Source: a virus
Virus genome (UHGV): UHGV-1695118
Direction: 5' to 3' (one strand)
DNA: 18,953 nucleotides
Part shown: positions 11,053 through 17,723 of the stretch, in pieces
How positions within the stretch are numbered: the stretch's first letter is position 1
Layout of the letters: every line of letters starts with the position of its first letter
Made by a program: the position numbers and the translations under genes
The notes under the pieces: model-generated
What the model was told of the DNA's origin: nothing
The model's input: only the letters and a program-made list of their open reading frames with translations
Databases searched by the model: none

Positions 11053-11231
11053 AAAACGAAGTTAAAGATCTGCAAATAGATATTCAGCGCGACGAGCGTG
11101 ATTTAGAGACGGTCCGACAAATCCAGGCTTTCCACATGCGCGAATTACTTGCGCTGAAAGAGTTCGAAAGAAAGCTGGTGCAATCCATTTCTGATCGTAA
11201 ACGGCTGGCGGCGCGTTATGAGGGCAAATAA
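11049..11231 (+). CDS. Small charged coiled-coil protein (60 aa)
   Basis: ORF-track ORF translationally coupled on both sides (ATGA with rusA, TAATG with Q). Confidence 0.5.
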   Translation: MKNEVKDLQIDIQRDERDLETVRQIQAFHMRELLALKEFERKLVQSISDRKRLAARYEGK

Positions 11232-11959
11232 TGAATTTAGAATCCATTCTAAAATTCCACTTTCCTAAATCACCGCGATTATCTGACGAAAGCCGGGGCA
11301 CGTCCCCGGACGCTCTTAATACGACGGATGCGCTAACCGCTGCGGGTATGGCGCAATCGCGCGTAGAGCTTGGATATAGCGCTTTTTTAGGGAAGATGGA
11401 ACTATCACAAGCCGAAAAACATAGGGCCGTAGTTTTGCTTACAGAGCGTTTAAGGGCTATGGCGAAAGATTACGAATACGTGATGGAGTTAAACGAGGAT
11501 CAGCGCAATGGACTTATTATTCTTGTTGCCGTTTTCGCGTTTCGGGATTATTGCCAGAGTGCGGCGACCGAAAAAGTTTGCCCTAAGTGCGGCGGCCACG
11601 GGCATTTACCAAATCCATATTGCAAATACACATCGACAATTTGTTCGCGGTGCAACGGCAAAGGCTACGTTAAAAACCATTGCCAACGTTGCAAGGGGCG
11701 CGGAGAAGTACCGGATAAAGCAGCCAGTGAAGCGGCGGAAATGCCAGTATTCAAAACGTGCCAGCATTGCGGCGGGCGCGGGTACTCGCGTTTCCCGGTA
11801 GATCTCGTCCGGCAGGCCGTTAACCAGCTTGTTTTCCCGGTAAGCAGATCAACATGGTGGAAGAAATACCGGGTTTTCTATGAAGACGCCATAGCGGAGC
11901 TATTCAAAGAAGAGGCCCGCGCGGAAAGCGAAATTAAACGAGTGACACGGGGTGAATAA
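11231..11959 (+). CDS. Q: Late-gene antitermination protein Q (lambda Q type)
   Basis: 242 aa. N-terminus MNLESILKFHFPKSPRLSDESRGTSPDALNTTDALTAAGMAQSR parallels the remembered lambda Q start. Four CxxCxGxG zinc-finger motifs. Confidence 0.88.
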   Translation: MNLESILKFHFPKSPRLSDESRGTSPDALNTTDALTAAGMAQSRVELGYSAFLGKMELSQAEKHRAVVLLTERLRAMAKDYEYVMELNEDQRNGLIILVAVFAFRDYCQSAATEKVCPKCGGHGHLPNPYCKYTSTICSRCNGKGYVKNHCQRCKGRGEVPDKAASEAAEMPVFKTCQHCGGRGYSRFPVDLVRQAVNQLVFPVSRSTWWKKYRVFYEDAIAELFKEEARAESEIKRVTRGE

Positions 11960-12063
11960 TGGACAAGTTAGAAATAAACGATCAGTTTGCCGTTATCTTA
12001 TTCGAAGATAAAACAGGCGGCGCATGTTGTAAAAAAAAGTCACTGGTGCTGAAGCGCGCTTAA
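11959..12063 (+). CDS. Possible 34-aa ORF coupled to Q (TAATG)
   Basis: ATG overlaps the Q stop. Sequence MDKLEINDQFAVILFEDKTGGACCKKKSLVLKRA. No independent support. Confidence 0.2.
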   Translation: MDKLEINDQFAVILFEDKTGGACCKKKSLVLKRA

Positions 12064-12147
12064 TATTGGGTATGGCAAGCGCGTTAAATGATGGCGAATT
12101 GCCCGCCATCCCTGTTAAGCCAGTGCATATCTATAAAAGGGGCGACA

Positions 12148-12495
12148 ATGAAAATGATTAATATCGGTTGGTTATATTGCGAAAACTGCGACGACGACGG
12201 CATGGTTGTTAAGACTGAAAAAGGCTGCGGCCTCTTTCTGTATCAAGGCGATAAGTTTGTTTGTCCGCGATGCGGTGGTAGTGGTGAGATAGAAATTATT
12301 GAAGATAACGCCGTAGCGCAAGAACCAGAGCGCATTGTCCTTGATGAAAAAATAAAAATTCATCCTGATTTATTACAGCAAATTATCGATCACGTATCGG
12401 CAGCCGCAATCTACGGCGATAACAATTATCAGCGTGAAATGAACGTCAAACGTGCGATTGAGCAGTATTTCGAAGGTGACGACAATGAAGCCTAA
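12148..12495 (+). CDS. Zinc-ribbon protein (115 aa, two CxxC pairs)
   Basis: ATG 12148 with AAGGGG upstream, within ORF-track frame 12088..12495. Motifs YCENCDDDG and CPRCGGSG. Confidence 0.6.
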   Translation: MKMINIGWLYCENCDDDGMVVKTEKGCGLFLYQGDKFVCPRCGGSGEIEIIEDNAVAQEPERIVLDEKIKIHPDLLQQIIDHVSAAAIYGDNNYQREMNVKRAIEQYFEGDDNEA

Positions 12496-12754
12496 ATTAA
12501 AAGAGCATGAATTTAGGGATCTCATAAACGGAATAACCGATAAAGCTAGGATGTACTCAAATGCGCAACAGTTAAGGGCGGTTATAGTTACGGAATTAAT
12601 GAAATACATTGAGCCATGCGGACCAGGCGACGAAATGACTATGGATAAGGCCATCAAGCGCCGTTCGGCTGATTGGTCGGTTAGTAACACTGGATTAACC
12701 GGATACATTGAAGGCTATAACGACTGTTTACAGGATCATGGCAATGAAAAGTAA
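12485..12754 (+). CDS. Hypothetical protein (89 aa)
   Basis: ATG 12485 with AAGGTG upstream, within ORF-track frame 12452..12754. Confidence 0.55.
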   Translation: MKPKLKEHEFRDLINGITDKARMYSNAQQLRAVIVTELMKYIEPCGPGDEMTMDKAIKRRSADWSVSNTGLTGYIEGYNDCLQDHGNEK

Positions 12755-12959
12755 CCGCAAGCGCCTTGTAAGGGCATACGATAAAGCATTAAAGGCTTTT
12801 GATGATCTGCGACACAATAAGCGCCAGCGCCGCAAATGGGCGCGTATGCTTGTTTATGAGTGGCATTATTCTGATGCTTTCATGGAAAGTGCGCCGCTAT
12901 TAACACAGGAACAAGCCGACGAAGTAGCTAACGATAACGTTTATTATATGATGTGGTGA
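12744..12959 (+). CDS. Hypothetical basic protein (71 aa)
   Basis: ATG 12744 with AGGA 8 nt upstream, within ORF-track frame 12708..12959. Confidence 0.5.
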   Translation: MKSNRKRLVRAYDKALKAFDDLRHNKRQRRKWARMLVYEWHYSDAFMESAPLLTQEQADEVANDNVYYMMW

Positions 12960-12963
12960 TAAT

Positions 12964-13329
12964 ATGCAAATAATCATTGATTACCTTTGCCACGCTGCAA
13001 ATACGCTTTTCGGTTTTTATCAGCAACCACTCCTGAAAGAATGGGACGAAATGCTTAATGACATCCTCGACAAAGGGTTAATAATGGAATTCGGGGAGCT
13101 AACAATCAAATTTAATTACGAAGGCAAAGAATATGACATATGGGTAGGCAACAGATGGTATGCATACGGGCATATTTATTCAATTGGCGGTAAATACATT
13201 AAACGAAGTCAGGAATTTAGACCGCGCTTCCGCACAATGCGACGACTGCATGACCTGCATATGAAGATATTTGGAGATCAGGAGGCACGGGAATTATTCA
13301 AAATTTACGGGGGTAAATCATGGAGCTAA
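12964..13329 (+). CDS. Hypothetical protein (121 aa)
   Basis: ORF-track ORF; GGTGA upstream. Confidence 0.6.
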   Translation: MQIIIDYLCHAANTLFGFYQQPLLKEWDEMLNDILDKGLIMEFGELTIKFNYEGKEYDIWVGNRWYAYGHIYSIGGKYIKRSQEFRPRFRTMRRLHDLHMKIFGDQEARELFKIYGGKSWS

Positions 13330-13550
13330 AAATCTGGCAGGCTATCGACGTAGTTGATAATGAATTAACAATGTTTGCCACTGACGGAAAGCGCGTGGTT
13401 ATCGCTACATGGACGCATAACCATGATGATATTGTTTTTCGTCGCAAGGCTGCGGAGTGGCTTTTCTCTGACAACGGCTACACGATGAATATCATGCAGC
13501 TTTCCAGAATGAAGGATGAAAAGCTGGTTGATAGTTACACAACTGCATAG
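13320..13550 (+). CDS. Hypothetical protein (76 aa)
   Basis: ORF-track ORF; GGGGG 6 nt upstream. Confidence 0.55.
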   Translation: MELKIWQAIDVVDNELTMFATDGKRVVIATWTHNHDDIVFRRKAAEWLFSDNGYTMNIMQLSRMKDEKLVDSYTTA

Positions 13551-13560
13551 TGGGGCAAAT

Positions 13561-13794
13561 ATGTGTATCTATGAACACAAGCGGGATAAAACCCGCTTTT
13601 TTGTTCGTGCTGGCGTGGCTTACCAGTATCACGACTGCGGATATATCGAGGCGCTTGCTTACGATCTGGATTTCGAACAAGAAAAAGAATGGTTTGATTT
13701 CAAGATTTACCGGAAGCGCAAGCCAACGCGTGACGAACGACACGCTATCCGGGACTTTTTAATCAGCATAGACCGCTGGGAGGCAGACGAATGA
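13561..13794 (+). CDS. Hypothetical protein (77 aa)
   Basis: ATG 13561 with GTGGGG upstream, within ORF-track frame 13516..13794. Confidence 0.5.
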   Translation: MCIYEHKRDKTRFFVRAGVAYQYHDCGYIEALAYDLDFEQEKEWFDFKIYRKRKPTRDERHAIRDFLISIDRWEADE

Positions 13795-14018
13795 AAGTTA
13801 AATTCTTGCACGATCACGGATACCCGTCATTGAAACAGGTTGTTGGTAAGGTCGTTAATGTCGTTCATAGCGATGATATTGCTTGCATGATTAATGGTGC
13901 TGATCTCATTGCTGCTGGTGCTGATGACCATTACATCAATCCGGCGTGGTCGTATACGTTCAGCCTGGGCGACTTCGTGGGCGATAAGGGGCGCGGGCTG
14001 CAAGTAGTCGAGGGTTAA
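13791..14018 (+). CDS. Hypothetical protein (75 aa), possible distant member of the tandem paralog family
   Basis: ORF-track ORF with ATGA coupling. Weak similarity to the downstream paralogs (ADDHYINPAWSY versus the shared YI-DD-G-W motif). Confidence 0.5.
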   Translation: MKVKFLHDHGYPSLKQVVGKVVNVVHSDDIACMINGADLIAAGADDHYINPAWSYTFSLGDFVGDKGRGLQVVEG

Positions 14019-14022
14019 TATT

Positions 14023-14271
14023 ATGGACGTTTACGAGGATGTTTACCTGGCACCTTCATCTTATAGCTTTTATTTTCTGATAAATGGAAAGGCTTATAGA
14101 TGCGATTCTGACGGGGTGAGAGAAGAAAAGCTGTTTTGCACTAAAGGATACCTGGATGATTTGGTTTTTGCCGGGATATTTCGTAAACGCCCGGCTAACC
14201 TGGAAGAAGAAATGTTGATTGAGGTAATTAAAAATGAAAATAAGGGTAAGTTATTTCCGGGCGAAAGATAA
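14023..14271 (+). CDS. Hypothetical protein (82 aa)
   Basis: ORF-track ORF; GAGGG upstream. Confidence 0.55.
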   Translation: MDVYEDVYLAPSSYSFYFLINGKAYRCDSDGVREEKLFCTKGYLDDLVFAGIFRKRPANLEEEMLIEVIKNENKGKLFPGER

Positions 14272-14485
14272 GGCAACAGGAAAGCAGATTGCGATCCTGG
14301 TTAACGAGGCGCAGTACATGTTTGTCCTTCAGCCGTGGTGTGTTGTAGATCTTAACGACAACTGTCGCCGCCACGCTGCGCGAAGTGCTGTTGGTATGAA
14401 AGGCTGGCAACCGCGCGACATGGAAAAATATTGTGAATGGAAATTGGTGGCAAAATACACGGTCGATTATAAAGGGGTTTTCTGA
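14234..14485 (+). CDS. Hypothetical protein (83 aa)
   Basis: ORF-track ORF overlapping the previous gene by 38 nt; GAGG 9 nt upstream. Confidence 0.5.
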   Translation: MKIRVSYFRAKDKATGKQIAILVNEAQYMFVLQPWCVVDLNDNCRRHAARSAVGMKGWQPRDMEKYCEWKLVAKYTVDYKGVF

Positions 14486-14709
14486 TGTTTGTAAAATGTA
14501 TAAAGTCTCGTTTCCCTAATCTTTTTGTGGTTGATGAGATTTACGACATAGAAACGCTAATAAGCAGAACTAACGATATTCAGTACATTTATGATGAAGA
14601 TGGCGATCCGTGGTTTTTTTATAACGATCTCAATGGTAGCGGATTCGTTGATGGCGTTGGCGGTAATGGTGTGCCAGTTGCGCTATTTATAAATGCAAAT
14701 AAGGAATGA
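14485..14709 (+). CDS. Tandem paralog family member A (74 aa)
   Basis: Sequence MFVKCIKSRFPNLFVVDEIYDIETLISRTNDIQYIYDEDGDPWFFY aligns with the three following ORFs. ATG overlaps the upstream stop. Confidence 0.6.
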   Translation: MFVKCIKSRFPNLFVVDEIYDIETLISRTNDIQYIYDEDGDPWFFYNDLNGSGFVDGVGGNGVPVALFINANKE

Positions 14710-14714
14710 ATATC

Positions 14715-14921
14715 ATGTATGTTAGATGCACTGAATCAAAATCATCATGCTTTGAGGTTGGCGGAATATATACCGTAGCTCACCTGACTGGTGATGAACT
14801 TAACACCCAATACATTAAAGACGACCACGGAGACGCGTGGCGCTATTGGGATTGTTACGCGCGTGGACACGTTGCCAGCCAGTTCAGTACGGAACCGATC
14901 GCGCGTTTTGTTAAGTGGTGA
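14715..14921 (+). CDS. Tandem paralog family member B (68 aa)
   Basis: Sequence MYVRCTESKSSCFEVGGIYTVAHLTGDELNTQYIKDDHGDAWRYW. ATG 14715 with AAGGA 9 nt upstream, within ORF-track frame 14706..14921. Confidence 0.6.
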   Translation: MYVRCTESKSSCFEVGGIYTVAHLTGDELNTQYIKDDHGDAWRYWDCYARGHVASQFSTEPIARFVKW

Positions 14922-14930
14922 GGTAGTGTT

Positions 14931-15170
14931 ATGAGACAGAATCAGAGATACCAGTGCACATACTCACGATGCAGCGCGTTTTTTAAGAATGGCAAGATCT
15001 ACGAAGTCGGAGCGGCATTGGTTGACGCAAAGGATCAGGAATATATTCACGCCATTACTGACGACCAGGGCCAGTTATGGCGATTTTATAAGATGGGATG
15101 TGGAACTGCGCTTGTTTATGCGCGGGCTTGTGGTGGTGCTTTTGCTGCGTTTTCGTATGTAGGTGCATAA
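14931..15170 (+). CDS. Tandem paralog family member C (79 aa)
   Basis: Segment YQCTYSRCSAFFKNGKIYEVGAALVDAKDQEYIHAITDDQGQLWRFY. GAGGT upstream. Confidence 0.6.
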   Translation: MRQNQRYQCTYSRCSAFFKNGKIYEVGAALVDAKDQEYIHAITDDQGQLWRFYKMGCGTALVYARACGGAFAAFSYVGA

Positions 15171-15171
15171 A

Positions 15172-15390
15172 ATGATTTTAACGTGTAACGAATCGAGATT
15201 AGGTTGTTTTGAGGAAGGAGCACAGTACACGGCTGAAAAACCGATGGGATTGTCTCCTAAATTTCCGTTTATCGTCGTGACTGACACTTACGGTCACTTA
15301 TGGTATGCAGGGCCGCTAGGCGGTATTGGTCGTTATGTTGTCCGTAGTTTGGATGGGGCGATGAAGGTTACTTTTACGGAAGAAACGTAA
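15172..15390 (+). CDS. Tandem paralog family member D (72 aa)
   Basis: Sequence MILTCNESRLGCFEEGAQYTAEKPMGLSPKFPFIVVTDTYGHLWYAG. ATG 15172 within ORF-track frame 15163..15390 (which uses a GTG start). Confidence 0.55.
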   Translation: MILTCNESRLGCFEEGAQYTAEKPMGLSPKFPFIVVTDTYGHLWYAGPLGGIGRYVVRSLDGAMKVTFTEET

Positions 15391-15416
15391 ATGTGATCTG
15401 TATTACAAGGTTTACG

Positions 15417-15450
15417 AAATGGCATTGTTTCGGCAGTGCCATTTTGTTAT
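15417..15450 (+). terminator. Rho-independent terminator-like hairpin after the paralog array
   Basis: AAATGGCATTG-TTTCGG-CAGTGCCATTT: 11-bp stem with one G-U pair and a 6-nt loop, followed by TGTTAT. Confidence 0.5.
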
Positions 15451-15488
15451 AAAGAAGCTGAAGAGAGAACGATGCGGAGGGTAGAAAA

Positions 15489-15767
15489 ATGAAACGCTGG
15501 ATTAACAAAGAAGTCGAATCTCGCTTAAACGCATTTTGGGAGATGGTGGAGAAAGAAGACCCAGCACACGCTGCAAGCCCTTACCTGAACAACATCGAAT
15601 ATCACTACATTGCAGCAAACAACGCGGAGTTCGAAGAAGAAGGTGGAGCCGACAAGTTCGCACAAAGCAACGCATTCAACAACGCAAACGAAATGATGAT
15701 GGCAGTCATCGAACAGGCAGAGGAAGACTACGAATGCAAATCACTTGAATTCGCACGTATGGCATAA
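15489..15767 (+). CDS. Acidic small protein (92 aa)
   Basis: ORF-track ORF with GGAGGG upstream. Strongly Asp/Glu-rich (EFEEEGGADKF, EQAEEDYE). Confidence 0.6.
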   Translation: MKRWINKEVESRLNAFWEMVEKEDPAHAASPYLNNIEYHYIAANNAEFEEEGGADKFAQSNAFNNANEMMMAVIEQAEEDYECKSLEFARMA

Positions 15768-15918: not shown

Positions 15919-15923
15919 AACAC

Positions 15924-15939
15924 GGGGCCGGATGGCCCC
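15924..15939. other. Perfect hairpin GGGGCC-GGAT-GGCCCC in an intergenic spacer
   Basis: 6-bp GC stem with a GGAT loop. No U-tract on the plus strand; a moderately T-rich tract follows on the minus strand. Confidence 0.4.
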
Positions 15940-15961
15940 ATCAAATCAGAAGGGTGTAATC

Positions 15962-16261
15962 ATGAAAAGCGCTAAATTTATTGCTTGCTGTTTTGTTGAA
16001 GTTCCTAACGATGATGTTTTCTGTAATTATGAATTTAAAGACAGCTTAGGCAGATCTCACATTGTTGTTGGCAAACGCGGCGACTGGTTATATATAACCG
16101 ATGACGATATGATTTTTACCAGAAATCAACTTTTTCACATCCACTCAGTAAATAATTATGCGCCAGTTGCCGCTATATCCGTAATGGATATGCACGCTAA
16201 GAAATGGATTGAAAAGGACGATATTAACGAAGCGCGTAGCTTACCTGGTGCGGAGTTTTAA
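15962..16261 (+). CDS. Hypothetical protein (99 aa)
   Basis: ATG 15962 with AAGGGTG upstream, within ORF-track frame 15932..16261. Contains GDWLYITDDD, loosely like the paralog motif. Confidence 0.55.
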   Translation: MKSAKFIACCFVEVPNDDVFCNYEFKDSLGRSHIVVGKRGDWLYITDDDMIFTRNQLFHIHSVNNYAPVAAISVMDMHAKKWIEKDDINEARSLPGAEF

Positions 16262-16522: not shown

Positions 16523-16846
16523 ATGTCTAAATTTATCAGCGTTAAAGTTTTCCGTGGCACTTTACCGAACGAAGAAAGATTAGGACAATTTGCCGGGCAA
16601 CCTAGTGCATGTTTCCGTGTAGCCACTGAAGACGATGCGCATGTTAAATGCTTCCACGTATCGGAACCGCCTTTTAATGCAGACCATCTTGAAGACCCGG
16701 ATAGAATTAAAAGCCTAGTATCTGCCTATCTGATGTTCCAGGGTATCGCTGATATGGAAGTGGAATTGCTTGGCGCTGAACTGGTGGCAGAATACAAAAT
16801 TACTGAAGCAGAAAGCGGAGAATCAAAAATTGAGCGCATCAAATAA
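16523..16846 (+). CDS. Hypothetical acidic protein (107 aa)
   Basis: ORF-track ORF with AAGGAG 8 nt upstream. Confidence 0.65.
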   Translation: MSKFISVKVFRGTLPNEERLGQFAGQPSACFRVATEDDAHVKCFHVSEPPFNADHLEDPDRIKSLVSAYLMFQGIADMEVELLGAELVAEYKITEAESGESKIERIK

Positions 16847-17081
16847 ACCTTACAAAATCCGTTGTAAAGGTGAATACCCTGGCTTTACGACTGGTTGCGA
16901 ATACTTGGGCCACATTGGATGCGGCCCTTTCGGTGAGTTAGGGATGAATACGCTGGACGACGACGGCGACAGCCGGACGCTTGATCTTGATTCTGATGAT
17001 TTCGAATACATCCCGCCAGTAACTTACCGTGCCGTTGATGATTTCCTGGCTGAACATGAAGACGAGGGCGATGATGATTGA
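16830..17081 (+). CDS. Cys-containing protein with a highly acidic C-terminus (83 aa from TTG 16830; ORF-track frame starts at 16770)
   Basis: Start uncertain: both candidates are TTG codons; GGAG lies 9 nt upstream of 16830. C-terminus DDDGDSRTLDLDSDDFEYIPP...AEHEDEGDDD. Confidence 0.4.
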   Translation: MSASNKPYKIRCKGEYPGFTTGCEYLGHIGCGPFGELGMNTLDDDGDSRTLDLDSDDFEYIPPVTYRAVDDFLAEHEDEGDDD

Positions 17082-17444: not shown

Positions 17445-17617
17445 ACGAGATCGAAGATGGTATCTATTTGCATAAGGTATTTAACATCGTCTATTTACTT
17501 AAAGGTAATAAGGTGATGATAAGACCTGATGACGATCCACATTGGGAATCAAGCGACATGGATCGGCGGCATATGCAAATGTTGCTTGATAACGGCCTGA
17601 TATATAGAAAGCCGTAA
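17441..17617 (+). CDS. Hypothetical small protein (58 aa), possible paralog of the preceding gene
   Basis: ATGA coupling. Sequence MNEIEDGIYLHKVFNIVYLLKGNKVMIRPDDDPHWESSDMDRRHMQMLLDNGLIYRKP shares an IEDG(V/I)Y start with the upstream ORF. Confidence 0.45.
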   Translation: MNEIEDGIYLHKVFNIVYLLKGNKVMIRPDDDPHWESSDMDRRHMQMLLDNGLIYRKP

Positions 17618-17624
17618 GCCGTAT

Positions 17625-17653
17625 TTGTAGGGCGTAAACAAACAGATTAAAAT
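17625..17653 (+). promoter_or_regulatory. Candidate promoter (-35 TTGTAG, 17-bp spacer, -10 TAAAAT) upstream of the lysis genes; possible late PR'-like promoter
   Basis: Read directly; lies 25-50 nt upstream of a strong terminator. Identified by eye only. Confidence 0.35.
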
Positions 17654-17680
17654 ATTTCCTAACAATGCGAAATTGTAATT

Positions 17681-17711
17681 ACCCGGCCCCGCGCCGGGTT
17701 TTTGCTTTGTT
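17681..17711 (+). terminator. Rho-independent terminator immediately upstream of the holin gene (tR'-like position)
   Basis: ACCCGGC-CCCGC-GCCGGGT 7-bp GC-rich stem followed by TTTTGCTTTGTT. Confidence 0.7.
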
Positions 17712-17723
17712 GGAGGAAAATCT

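Follow-up and report, generated by a model that had tools for sequence, protein, structure and literature searches.

What occupies the stretch between the antiterminator gene and the lysis genes in this phage, and are the small open reading frames (ORFs) found there related to each other? The window analyzed here, i.e., the whole 18,953-nucleotide stretch of UHGV virus genome UHGV-1695118, is of the mEp021-type (mEpimmI) of temperate coliphages, and represents an E. coli prophage. The Q antiterminator gene (PF03589) lies at positions 11231–11959 and is followed by an unbroken run of small ORFs, and a strong terminator was found at 17681–17699, immediately upstream of the holin. A first-pass annotation, made from the sequence alone, had described four consecutive ORFs within this run as diverged paralogs closed by a terminator-like hairpin. 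All four ORFs were recovered on the plus strand at exactly the positions given there, in a slot downstream of the Q gene and upstream of the lysis genes. The features relevant to our analysis are as follows:

14485..14709, plus strand: member A, 74 aa, pI 4.2 (ORF, shuffle z, phrog_31142 and leave-out profile)
14715..14921, plus strand: member B, 68 aa
14931..15170, plus strand: member C, 79 aa, pI 8.8 (phrog_31142, leave-out profile and dN/dS)
15172..15390, plus strand: member D, 72 aa (shuffle z, leave-out profile and dN/dS)
15414..15447, plus strand: terminator-like hairpin with a 15-bp stem, a UUCG loop and a U-containing tail (folding)
16830..17081, plus strand: tentative relative of the array proteins, 83 aa, TTG start with GGAG 9 nt upstream (phrog_25234, 9e-54)

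The array genes are tightly packed—their start and stop codons either overlap or are separated by 1–9 nt—and no gap divides the array from the preceding genes, with the ATG of member A overlapping the TGA of the gene upstream (TGATG). The start of member B at 14715 (M-Y-V-R-C) agrees with the N-terminus of the family, M-x-V-x-C, and AAGGAA lies 8 nt ahead of it; if translation began at the ATG at 14706 instead, the protein would be three residues longer. The start of member D at 15172 (M-I-L-T-C) likewise agrees with the family, with an alternative GTG at 15163. Member C is the sole basic member in the window, and the pI lies between 4.1 and 6.2 in eight of the ten subfamilies described below. 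The family N-terminus carries no hydrophobic, signal-like stretch, which argues for a cytoplasmic location and makes a periplasmic, PliC-like role unlikely.

Several comparisons connect the four proteins. Smith-Waterman alignments evaluated against 1000 shuffles gave z-scores of 12.7 (A-B), 10.8 (A-C), 9.2 (B-C) and 9.4 (B-D), versus 3.75 for C-D and 0.5 for A-D; hence, B is what ties member D, the furthest diverged among the four, to the family. Profiles built with one subfamily left out were searched against 344 six-frame ORFs of the window, and the left-out subfamily was the best non-training match in each case (4e-12 for A, 8e-15 for B, 1e-11 for C and 7e-4 for D); the family profile matched D at 1e-31. 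Residues C5, S8, F13, Y19, D36, G39 and W42 are invariant in A–D, and the shared motifs read by eye in the first pass proved essentially right, except that the G of F-x-x-G is replaced by D in member A, and that member D reads D-T where the motif has D-D. As judged by sequence comparison, the four ORFs at 14485–15390 are true paralogs of one family. The family comprises at least 10 subfamilies (A, B, B', C, D, D', F, G, H and I), and hhalign returned 98% for the family against G, 75% against I (P 2.5e-5) and 26% against H (P 7e-4). The subfamilies share only approximately 20–40% identity, yet their ORFs are intact and the core residues are kept.

The array is narrower than the span of 13791–15390 initially assigned to it: it contains the four members and extends from 14485 to 15390. 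The ORF at 13791–14018, which had been proposed as a distant member, gave no match to the family HMM and an hhalign P of 0.65; it belongs to phrog_5009 and is present in all relatives. The genes at 14023–14271 and 14234–14485, inside the same range, are unrelated to the array family. The other ORF suggested as a distant member, at 15962–16261, ranked first among the non-members in four out of five family-profile searches, never at a significant level (E 0.06–1), and its hhalign comparison (P 0.02 over 19 columns) does not place it in the family either.

Searches of existing catalogues provided little to build upon. Pfam and NCBIfam yielded no meaningful match for A–D—the sole Pfam line, DUF6436 for member D, was far below the cut-off—and no HMM of PADLOC-DB, a collection of known anti-phage defence proteins, matched A–D or the neighbours tested. 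Rfam gave no meaningful match in the region. In PDB sequence searches, all matches were at chance level, e.g., a cysteine sulfinic acid decarboxylase (E 0.65), or repeat-driven, as in the designed 'Cake' propellers. The propeller and Cake scores are sums of numerous short hits in which the D-D-x-G-x-x-W hairpin is matched again and again, and a beta-propeller blade (Reg_prop PF07494, BNR or FG-GAP) was rejected, with no Pfam match and a structure model corresponding to a closed barrel, not an open, four-stranded blade. In PHROGs v4, phrog_31142 matches B and B' over their full length (1.6e-40 and 2e-38, respectively) and, more weakly, A (3.4e-9), C (1.8e-5), F and G, with no match to D, D', H or I. 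Existing catalogues thus already include some of these proteins, as a nameless phage family; phrog_31142 carries no annotation, and the paralogy and the array are recorded nowhere.

We observed considerable variation in this slot across 27 related loci. It holds between zero and five members, drawn from the subfamilies above and combined in 17 architectures, and is an accessory region in which the phage genomes differ strongly. The member order is fixed, i.e., [A-B/B'/H]-[G/F]-[I]-[C]-[D/D']-hairpin (slashes separate alternatives). Single-member arrays contain only B (L007 and L008) or only G (mEp554), and the array is wholly absent from the prototype phage, mEp021—both situations argue for independent action and dispensability of the members. 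Natural deletions of ~2 kb take out most of the array, and frameshifted, truncated and fused variants are frequent in public data (P0020–P0024, P0017, P0027 and a frameshift in the A gene of locus L006). Full-length relatives with a named source came exclusively from E. coli or Caudoviricetes/coliphage records, both in word-indexed and in exhaustive profile searches; none was found outside E. coli in these searches, where many records are nameless. Among 5426 complete E. coli genomes, a query spanning 14234–15500, which includes the upstream gene, was matched in 35, and approximately 11 of these contained the upstream gene only. The slot is a cassette of interchangeable genes, seen in no phages other than those of the mEp021-type.

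The hairpin said to close the array is real. It has a centroid energy of about −20 kcal/mol (z −3.6 for the folded 83-nt stretch), and the annotations of mEp044, mEp010 and mEp554 each show an ARNold terminator in the equivalent position. With six mismatches at most, it is kept in 25 of the 27 loci, 26–63 nt after the last member, whichever that is, and it is missing only in mEp021 (no array) and mEp013 (deletion). In this respect, the array resembles the accessory moron-type units of temperate phages (own promoter, gene, terminator): it is a non-core insertion between conserved genes, ends in an intrinsic-terminator hairpin, and lacks that hairpin both in the empty-slot phage and in the phage with a deletion through the slot. 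However, a moron brings in one foreign gene, whereas the array consists of several paralogs and follows the preceding genes without intergenic space; a consensus-based promoter scan, which can miss weak or internal promoters, found 13 sites, against 16.8 expected by chance, with no excess ahead of the array.

How did this diversity arise? The first-pass annotation had read tandem duplication with divergence as a sign of diversifying selection, and the substitution rates do not support this proposal. Pooled dN/dS within subfamilies was 0.07–0.20 (0.15 for member C over 45 pairs and 0.16 for member D; the value of 0.42 for A comes from a single pair), in the same range as the flanking genes (0.05–0.40). 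The array subfamilies are coding and under purifying selection, and diversifying selection within orthologs was rejected on ratios well below 1. The paralogs have no DNA-level repeats or shared DNA tracts, which argues against recent duplication or gene conversion; together with protein identities to B of just 24–32% among the window paralogs, this indicates that the duplications are old. The variation seen today results from whole genes being gained, lost or replaced by other alleles while their order stays the same; fast sequence change is not its source. The array corrects the tempting equation of a diverged tandem array with ongoing positive selection: the copies are conserved, and the gene content varies.

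From a structural perspective, the monomer model obtained, that of B, is a closed, six-stranded small beta-barrel (pLDDT 90) with a prominent beta1–beta2 loop, and matches Gp54 of Escherichia phage Bas11 (JohannLBurckhardt; PDB 9AXB and 9ERV; Zhang et al., Nature 2024, PMC11578894). This fold call rests on the deeper alignment, since with a shallower one, the model was of poor quality (pLDDT 69) and matched no fold. On this basis, the array proteins are predicted to share a Gp54-type barrel fold; SH3-like small beta-barrels also count among the closest known systems. Similar predicted barrels are common in T1-like phages, often with several per genome. Gp54 is a small, non-essential protein that is bound by a bacterial defence sensor: it activates CapRelSJ46 by direct binding, via partial unfolding of the barrel (PMC11578894). 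Its homologs include Gp19 of SECphi27, close homologs differ in CapRelSJ46 binding and activation, and the discoverers speculate that Gp54 may be a counter-defence factor (PMC11578894). Gp54 is among the few phage proteins for which structures show direct triggering of a bacterial immune sensor, and its fold has been reported as very rare; our literature search found no follow-up on its native role.

The array genes resemble Gp54 in being small (68–79 aa) and non-essential accessories, absent in mEp021 and single-copy or deleted elsewhere. At the sequence level, hhalign detected no homology between A5 and Gp54 (P 0.17), and a comparison of the family alignment with an 8-sequence Gp54 alignment was likewise not significant (P 0.17). 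Furthermore, the one PHROG family matched by Gp54 is phrog_7421, to which no array protein gave a match. The link to Gp54 is a fold-only one, drawn through a predicted model, and such an analogy would transfer little functional information. If the prediction is right, the Gp54 fold would exist as at least 10 subfamilies in an ordered, swappable array within a common group of temperate coliphages of the gut.

Two further sets of proteins may be related to the family. The protein encoded at 16830–17081 is a tentative relative, with K-I-R-C, G-F-T-T-G-x-E-Y and L-D-D-D-G-D motifs in its N-terminal half and a very acidic C-terminal tail (net charge −15). Its hhalign comparison with the family (P 0.012) covers 28 columns, which align in the register expected, and it is usually among the top non-members in family-profile searches, with weak E-values of 0.6–5.8. 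Three independent natural in-frame fusions to its acidic tail were identified (P0025, P0090 and P0018); the fusion points lie at or beside the D-D-x-G-D motif in B and H, and slightly further on in A. Two of the three were verified on 40-kb contigs as deletions of ~2 kb. The second set consists of DUF6501 (PF20111), for which no paper mentioning the domain was found, and P0060, a metagenomic protein with four tandem repeats of ~65 aa that matches DUF6501 at 1.3e-10. The family profile matches P0060 at E 8e-4 in a search of 1.8 billion proteins, the repeats align column for column, and a common motif order (V-x-C ... G-K-x-Y-x-V ... I-x-D-D-x-G ... R-F) is apparent. In addition, B, C, G, H and one P0060 repeat show weak matches to phrog_4927, which we group with phrog_10169, DUF6501 and P0060 as a near system. 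However, the ~18 residues that separate the W-x-F strand from the final strand in the array proteins are missing from the P0060 repeats, and the DUF6501 HMM did not match A–D, P0005, P0040, P0049 or P0056, even at E 10. The tie between the array family and DUF6501/P0060 is weak and indirect.

What could such a cassette do for the phage? The explanation we favour, plausible but still tentative, is that the genes encode independent accessory barrel proteins in a swappable slot, aimed at host or defence proteins. Each gene would give rise to a free-standing, cytoplasmic, mostly acidic six-stranded small beta-barrel of ~70 residues, probably transcribed from a long rightward, antitermination-dependent operon ending at the intrinsic-terminator hairpin—a timing suggested by gene order only. 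Each paralog alone may act as a small protein-binding module, in which the conserved core (C5, F13, G-x-I-Y, D-D-x-G-x-x-W and F65) would display subfamily-specific loops and surfaces. These surfaces would face one host or host-defence protein, which the barrel either blocks or is sensed by, and the repertoire would change by whole-gene swaps through recombination. An anti-defence or host-specificity role, as suggested in the first pass, could fit this scheme, and protein binding, host takeover or counter-defence and the timing of expression are all best regarded as conjectural elements of it. The array provides a natural panel of diverged scaffolds, together with deletion and fusion variants, for testing binding, defence inhibition or triggering, and repertoire diversification.

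A bolder version of this explanation, possible albeit doubtful, is that the array acts as an 'immune-interface' cassette. Each barrel subfamily would have its own E. coli defence sensor, e.g., a CapRel-type fused toxin-antitoxin, which it would neutralise or by which it would be sensed, and host range would be tuned by whole-barrel exchange in a fixed five-position array, with the acidic-tail protein at 16830–17081 as a sixth member accepting barrel N-termini by in-register fusion. If true, the array would represent the first repertoire of several paralogs with the rare Gp54 fold, and would show what Gp54-type proteins natively do.

A different view, which we consider unlikely, is that the proteins are small nucleic-acid-binding barrels (SH3-, Sm- or OB-like) with a regulatory action on transcripts or DNA of the phage or its host, e.g., in antitermination, translation or replication. 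We assign the same low likelihood to a part in phage development, e.g., lysis timing, DNA packaging or virion assembly, with the variation representing neutral redundancy among interchangeable copies. Purifying selection and the fixed gene order would also be compatible with such a housekeeping role; nevertheless, the array is non-core, given its absence from mEp021 and the natural 2-kb deletions that remove most of it, and the proteins have no signal-like N-terminus. Moreover, the mEpimmI genomics paper does not discuss the array genes, and the family is absent from mEp021, the only virion analyzed by mass spectrometry in that study.

Slightly less probable still is that the paralogs form one hetero-oligomeric complex. 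This would explain the tight spacing and the fixed order—the genes overlap or abut, and are strictly collinear across the 27 loci—and the D-D-x-G-x-x-W hairpin resembles propeller blade motifs, with weak profile matches to propeller repeats. However, phages carry anything from zero to five members in many combinations, including one alone, the monomer is modeled as a closed barrel, and the propeller matches are summed short motifs that Pfam propeller families do not support. Finally, it is highly improbable that these genes are mere leftovers of old duplications, devoid of function and kept by hitch-hiking: although disrupted variants are frequent, every subfamily with enough pairs is as constrained as the neighbouring genes, the ORFs and the core have survived extensive divergence, and the structure model is confident.

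Four consecutive, tightly packed ORFs occupy 14485-15390 on the plus strand, at exactly the coordinates that the first-pass annotation had assigned to the clear members of a tandem array of small paralogs, and a terminator-like hairpin follows them:

14485-14709, + strand, ORF, member A
14715-14921, + strand, ORF, member B
14931-15170, + strand, ORF, member C
15172-15390, + strand, ORF, member D
15414-15447, + strand, terminator-like hairpin (folded as a 15-bp stem with a UUCG loop)

The ATG of A overlaps the stop codon of the preceding gene (TGATG), B starts 5 nt past the stop of A (an alternative ATG of B at 14706 overlaps A), and gaps of 9 nt and 1 nt separate B from C and C from D, respectively. 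On reading the sequence, a purine-rich stretch lies a few bases 5' of every array-gene start.

Several lines of sequence evidence indicate that A-D are truly related as paralogs of one family, as the first-pass annotation had proposed. Smith-Waterman-type local alignment against 1000 shuffles gave z values of 12.7 (A-B), 10.8 (A-C), 9.2 (B-C), 9.4 (B-D), 3.75 (C-D) and 0.5 (A-D)—D is thus connected to the family via B in these alignments. A public profile built independently of the window, phrog_31142, matches B (2e-40), A (3e-9) and C (2e-5). When profiles made without the tested subfamily were run against all 344 six-frame ORFs of the window, the held-out member was the top remaining ORF each time (A, 4e-12; B, 8e-15; C, 1e-11; D, 7e-4). 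Besides the start Met, the residues C5, S8, F13, Y19, D36, G39 and W42, plus I34, are invariant across A-D, in agreement, bar small exceptions, with the motifs first picked out by eye. Protein identity to B is only 24-32% among the paralogs and no DNA repeats common to them were found, so the duplications are old. Two further ORFs suggested as distant members fell away: that at 13791 belongs to an unrelated family (phrog_5009; hhalign P 0.65) kept in all relatives, and that at 15962, the highest-ranked non-member in four of five family-profile searches, was never significant (E 0.06-1).

To place the array in a comparative context, 26 related loci were gathered from IMG/VR, GenBank phages and complete E. 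coli genomes (27 including the window), and every ORF between the conserved upstream gene (the 14234-14485 homolog) and the hairpin was classified. Across these loci, the slot is filled only by members of the array family, which fall into ten or more subfamilies: A, B, B' (sharing about 41% identity with B), C, D, D' (sharing about 55% identity with D), F, G, H (94 aa) and I (85 aa, N-terminal Cys lost). All ten form a coherent alignment; hhalign links G (98%) and I (75%, P 2.5e-5) to the family, and H less strongly (P 7e-4). Gene order is constant—A-B, B' or H; then G or F; I; C; D or D'; and the hairpin—while gene content takes 17 architectures among the 27 loci, including:

A-B-C-D (the window)
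A-B-I-C-D'
H-G-I-C-D' (MagusPhagus)
B'-C-D (mEp044)
G only (mEp554)
B only
empty (mEp021)

Frameshifted and fused variants of array members also occur among public data.

Selection was assessed by pooled Nei-Gojobori dN/dS within subfamilies, which yielded 0.14 for B, 0.13 for B', 0.15 for C, 0.16 for D, 0.11 for D', 0.20 for G, 0.07 for H, 0.16 for I and, from a single pair only, 0.42 for A; 13 neighbouring genes ranged from 0.05 to 0.40. These values mark the array genes as truly protein-coding and under purifying selection, contrary to the diversifying selection initially suggested, and they argue against the genes being junk. Arrays differ in gene content; rapid sequence change is not the source of their diversity. 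Given the low identity between paralogs and the lack of shared DNA tracts, synonymous sites between them would be saturated, so that dN/dS speaks for selection within subfamilies and not for the distant past.

The hairpin noted behind the array also proved real. Its centroid structure has about -20 kcal/mol, and the 83-nt folded stretch containing it has a z of -3.6 relative to shuffles. Three relatives carry an annotated ARNold terminator at the homologous site. In 25 of 27 loci, the hairpin sequence lies 26-63 nt 3' of the final array member, regardless of its subfamily; it is missing only in mEp021, which has no array, and in mEp013, where a deletion runs through it. In our reading of the hairpin sequences, the observed substitutions preserve pairing (G3-to-A turns G-U into A-U; A28-to-G yields U-G). 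Separately, a GC-rich 8-bp hairpin with a T-run lies on the minus strand at 15922-15941, just upstream of the 15932/15962 ORF; no gene that it might terminate is apparent on that strand.

Beyond the hairpin lies a possible further relative:

16830-17081, + strand, acidic-tail protein (83 aa, TTG start, phrog_25234)

Its N-terminal motifs (K-I-R-C ... G-F-T-T-G-x-E-Y ... L-D-D-D-G-D) precede a strongly acidic tail (...DSDDFEYIPP...DDFLAEHEDEGDDD, net charge -15), whose D-F-E-Y-I-P-P stretch may loosely resemble SSB C-terminal tips. Its profile-level similarity to the array family is weak (hhalign P 0.012) and runs in the expected register. In public assemblies, array members are fused in frame to this tail in three different ways (database proteins P0025, P0090 and P0018), the joint falling exactly at D-D-x-G-D for B and H and slightly beyond for A. 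Every B or H fusion (2501-2731 of related locus L035; 2501-2755 of related locus L036) removes about 2 kb comprising the hairpin and five to six genes; two fusions, on 40-kb phage contigs, are clean deletions of this size with normal neighbours on both sides. The B junction falls inside a 13/15-nt match (GACGAC.ACGG.GAC). Together, these features suggest, short of proof, that 16830-17081 is a positional homolog and possible sixth member of the array.

Full-length relatives were retrieved by indexed searches of 5.8 billion proteins and by an exhaustive profile search over 1.84 billion cluster representatives; all are labelled 'hypothetical protein', and those with a named source come solely from E. 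coli or Caudoviricetes, many of the records naming no organism. The only other proteins within reach of the profile contain repeats: beta-propellers, picked up via the D-D-x-G-x-x-W hairpin, and P0060, a 270-aa protein from a 1371-bp JGI metagenome contig. P0060 has four tandem repeats of ~65 aa with motifs ordered as in the array family (V-x-C ... G-K-x-Y ... D-D-x-G ... R-F) and matches Pfam DUF6501; the array proteins of the window gave no match to DUF6501 itself. P0060 may represent a wider superfamily in fused, repeated form, the link to it and DUF6501 being weak. The family is already in PHROGs, anonymously; its full extent, ordered cassette organisation and predicted Gp54-type fold appear undescribed in the searchable literature.

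Gp54 of Escherichia phage Bas11 is a non-essential protein of unknown function, a six-stranded barrel with a prominent beta1-beta2 loop and a topology termed 'very rare in nature'; by partial unfolding it binds the antitoxin domain of the bacterial defence protein CapRelSJ46 (Kd 800 nM) and thereby triggers it (PMC11578894). Foldseek against predicted viral structures matched the array model to many uncharacterised proteins of 60-135 aa (TM 0.7-0.85) from T1-like and other enterobacterial phages, sometimes several per genome. Gp54 and the array proteins belong to separate PHROGs, and hhalign detected no sequence homology between them (P 0.17, whether the comparison was with Gp54 by itself or an 8-sequence Gp54 alignment); in the short aligned region, their F-x-x-G motifs are in register. 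By its predicted fold, the array family joins the small Gp54-like accessory barrels of coliphages. In BFVD, the barrel model is matched by several different proteins (127, 168, 210 and 268 aa) of the same T1-like phage, with Escherichia phages vB_EcoS_NBD2 and vB_EcoS_ESCO41 as examples, which suggests multi-copy and multi-domain versions of the predicted fold in Drexlerviridae.

What emerges is a set of dispensable members, variable in copy number, each subfamily conserved—ten or more related predicted barrels with a conserved core. Each protein might work independently within the cytoplasm, as a small module that binds a protein of the host or of its defences, and recombination between phages would reshuffle the repertoire; from this pattern we consider such a role plausible, if just short of probable. 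No N-terminal hydrophobic segment was found in the array proteins. General nucleic-acid binding sits poorly with their mostly acidic character (pI 4.1-6.2; exceptions, C at 8.8 and B' at 7.7), and an obligate complex of array members with the existence of single-member arrays. A core developmental role is countered by the absence of the array from the prototype phage, mEp021. Half of the first-pass interpretation thus stands: paralogy and accessory status are borne out and a host-facing role is plausible, yet diversifying selection was not detectable.

The window is 85-87% identical to mEp044, mEp010, mEp554, mEp013, mEp021 and MagusPhagus, temperate coliphages of the mEp021 type (mEpimmI), and its array region (14234-15500) is 99.8% identical to a prophage of E. 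coli N25. The same query matched 35 of 5426 complete E. coli genomes, about 11 of them through the upstream gene only. Based partly on annotation of relatives, the window codes for a CI-like repressor, Erf, SSB, Dam, NinG and a Q-type antiterminator. The landmarks for transcription are:

11231-11959, Q-type antiterminator gene (PF03589)
17681-17699, + strand, strong intrinsic terminator (GC-rich 7-bp stem and T-run)
from 17724, holin-lysozyme-spanin cassette

Coding is uninterrupted from Q onward and the strong terminator lies directly upstream of the holin start; from this gene order, the array is probably on a long rightward, antitermination-dependent transcript shared with Q. The stretch 17600-17715 (+) resembles a late control point of the lambda pR'-tR' type, although this candidate lies ~5.7 kb downstream of the Q gene instead of beside it. 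A promoter scan found sites no more numerous than chance; about 30 nt upstream of the terminator is a possible -35/-10 pair (TTGTAG and TAAAAT, 17 nt apart). Another terminator-like hairpin with a T-run (13579-13598, +) sits within the coding sequence of the 13516/13561-13794 gene, where mEp554 has an ARNold terminator annotated at the equivalent place; together with that at 15414, it suggests an operon dependent on antitermination.

Some minor features complete the picture. A short ORF at 11960-12072 (+; about 37 aa, MDKLEINDQ...) starts at a TAATG overlap with the Q stop, leaving no non-coding gap after Q. The four-gene block 12088-13329 is an insertion relative to mEp021, in which the homolog of 13320-13550 directly follows Q. 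In L035, an HNH endonuclease gene absent from the window (PF13392; 4064-4585) lies between the lysozyme and Rz-like lysis genes. Just 5' of the array, genes 14023-14271 and 14234-14485 (+) are conserved and overlap by 38 nt. The mEp021 homolog of the former is annotated 'virion structural protein', and the mEpimmI paper compares it to the RB69 translational repressor; the latter has a faint match to a 'translation repressor' PHROG (E 0.07).
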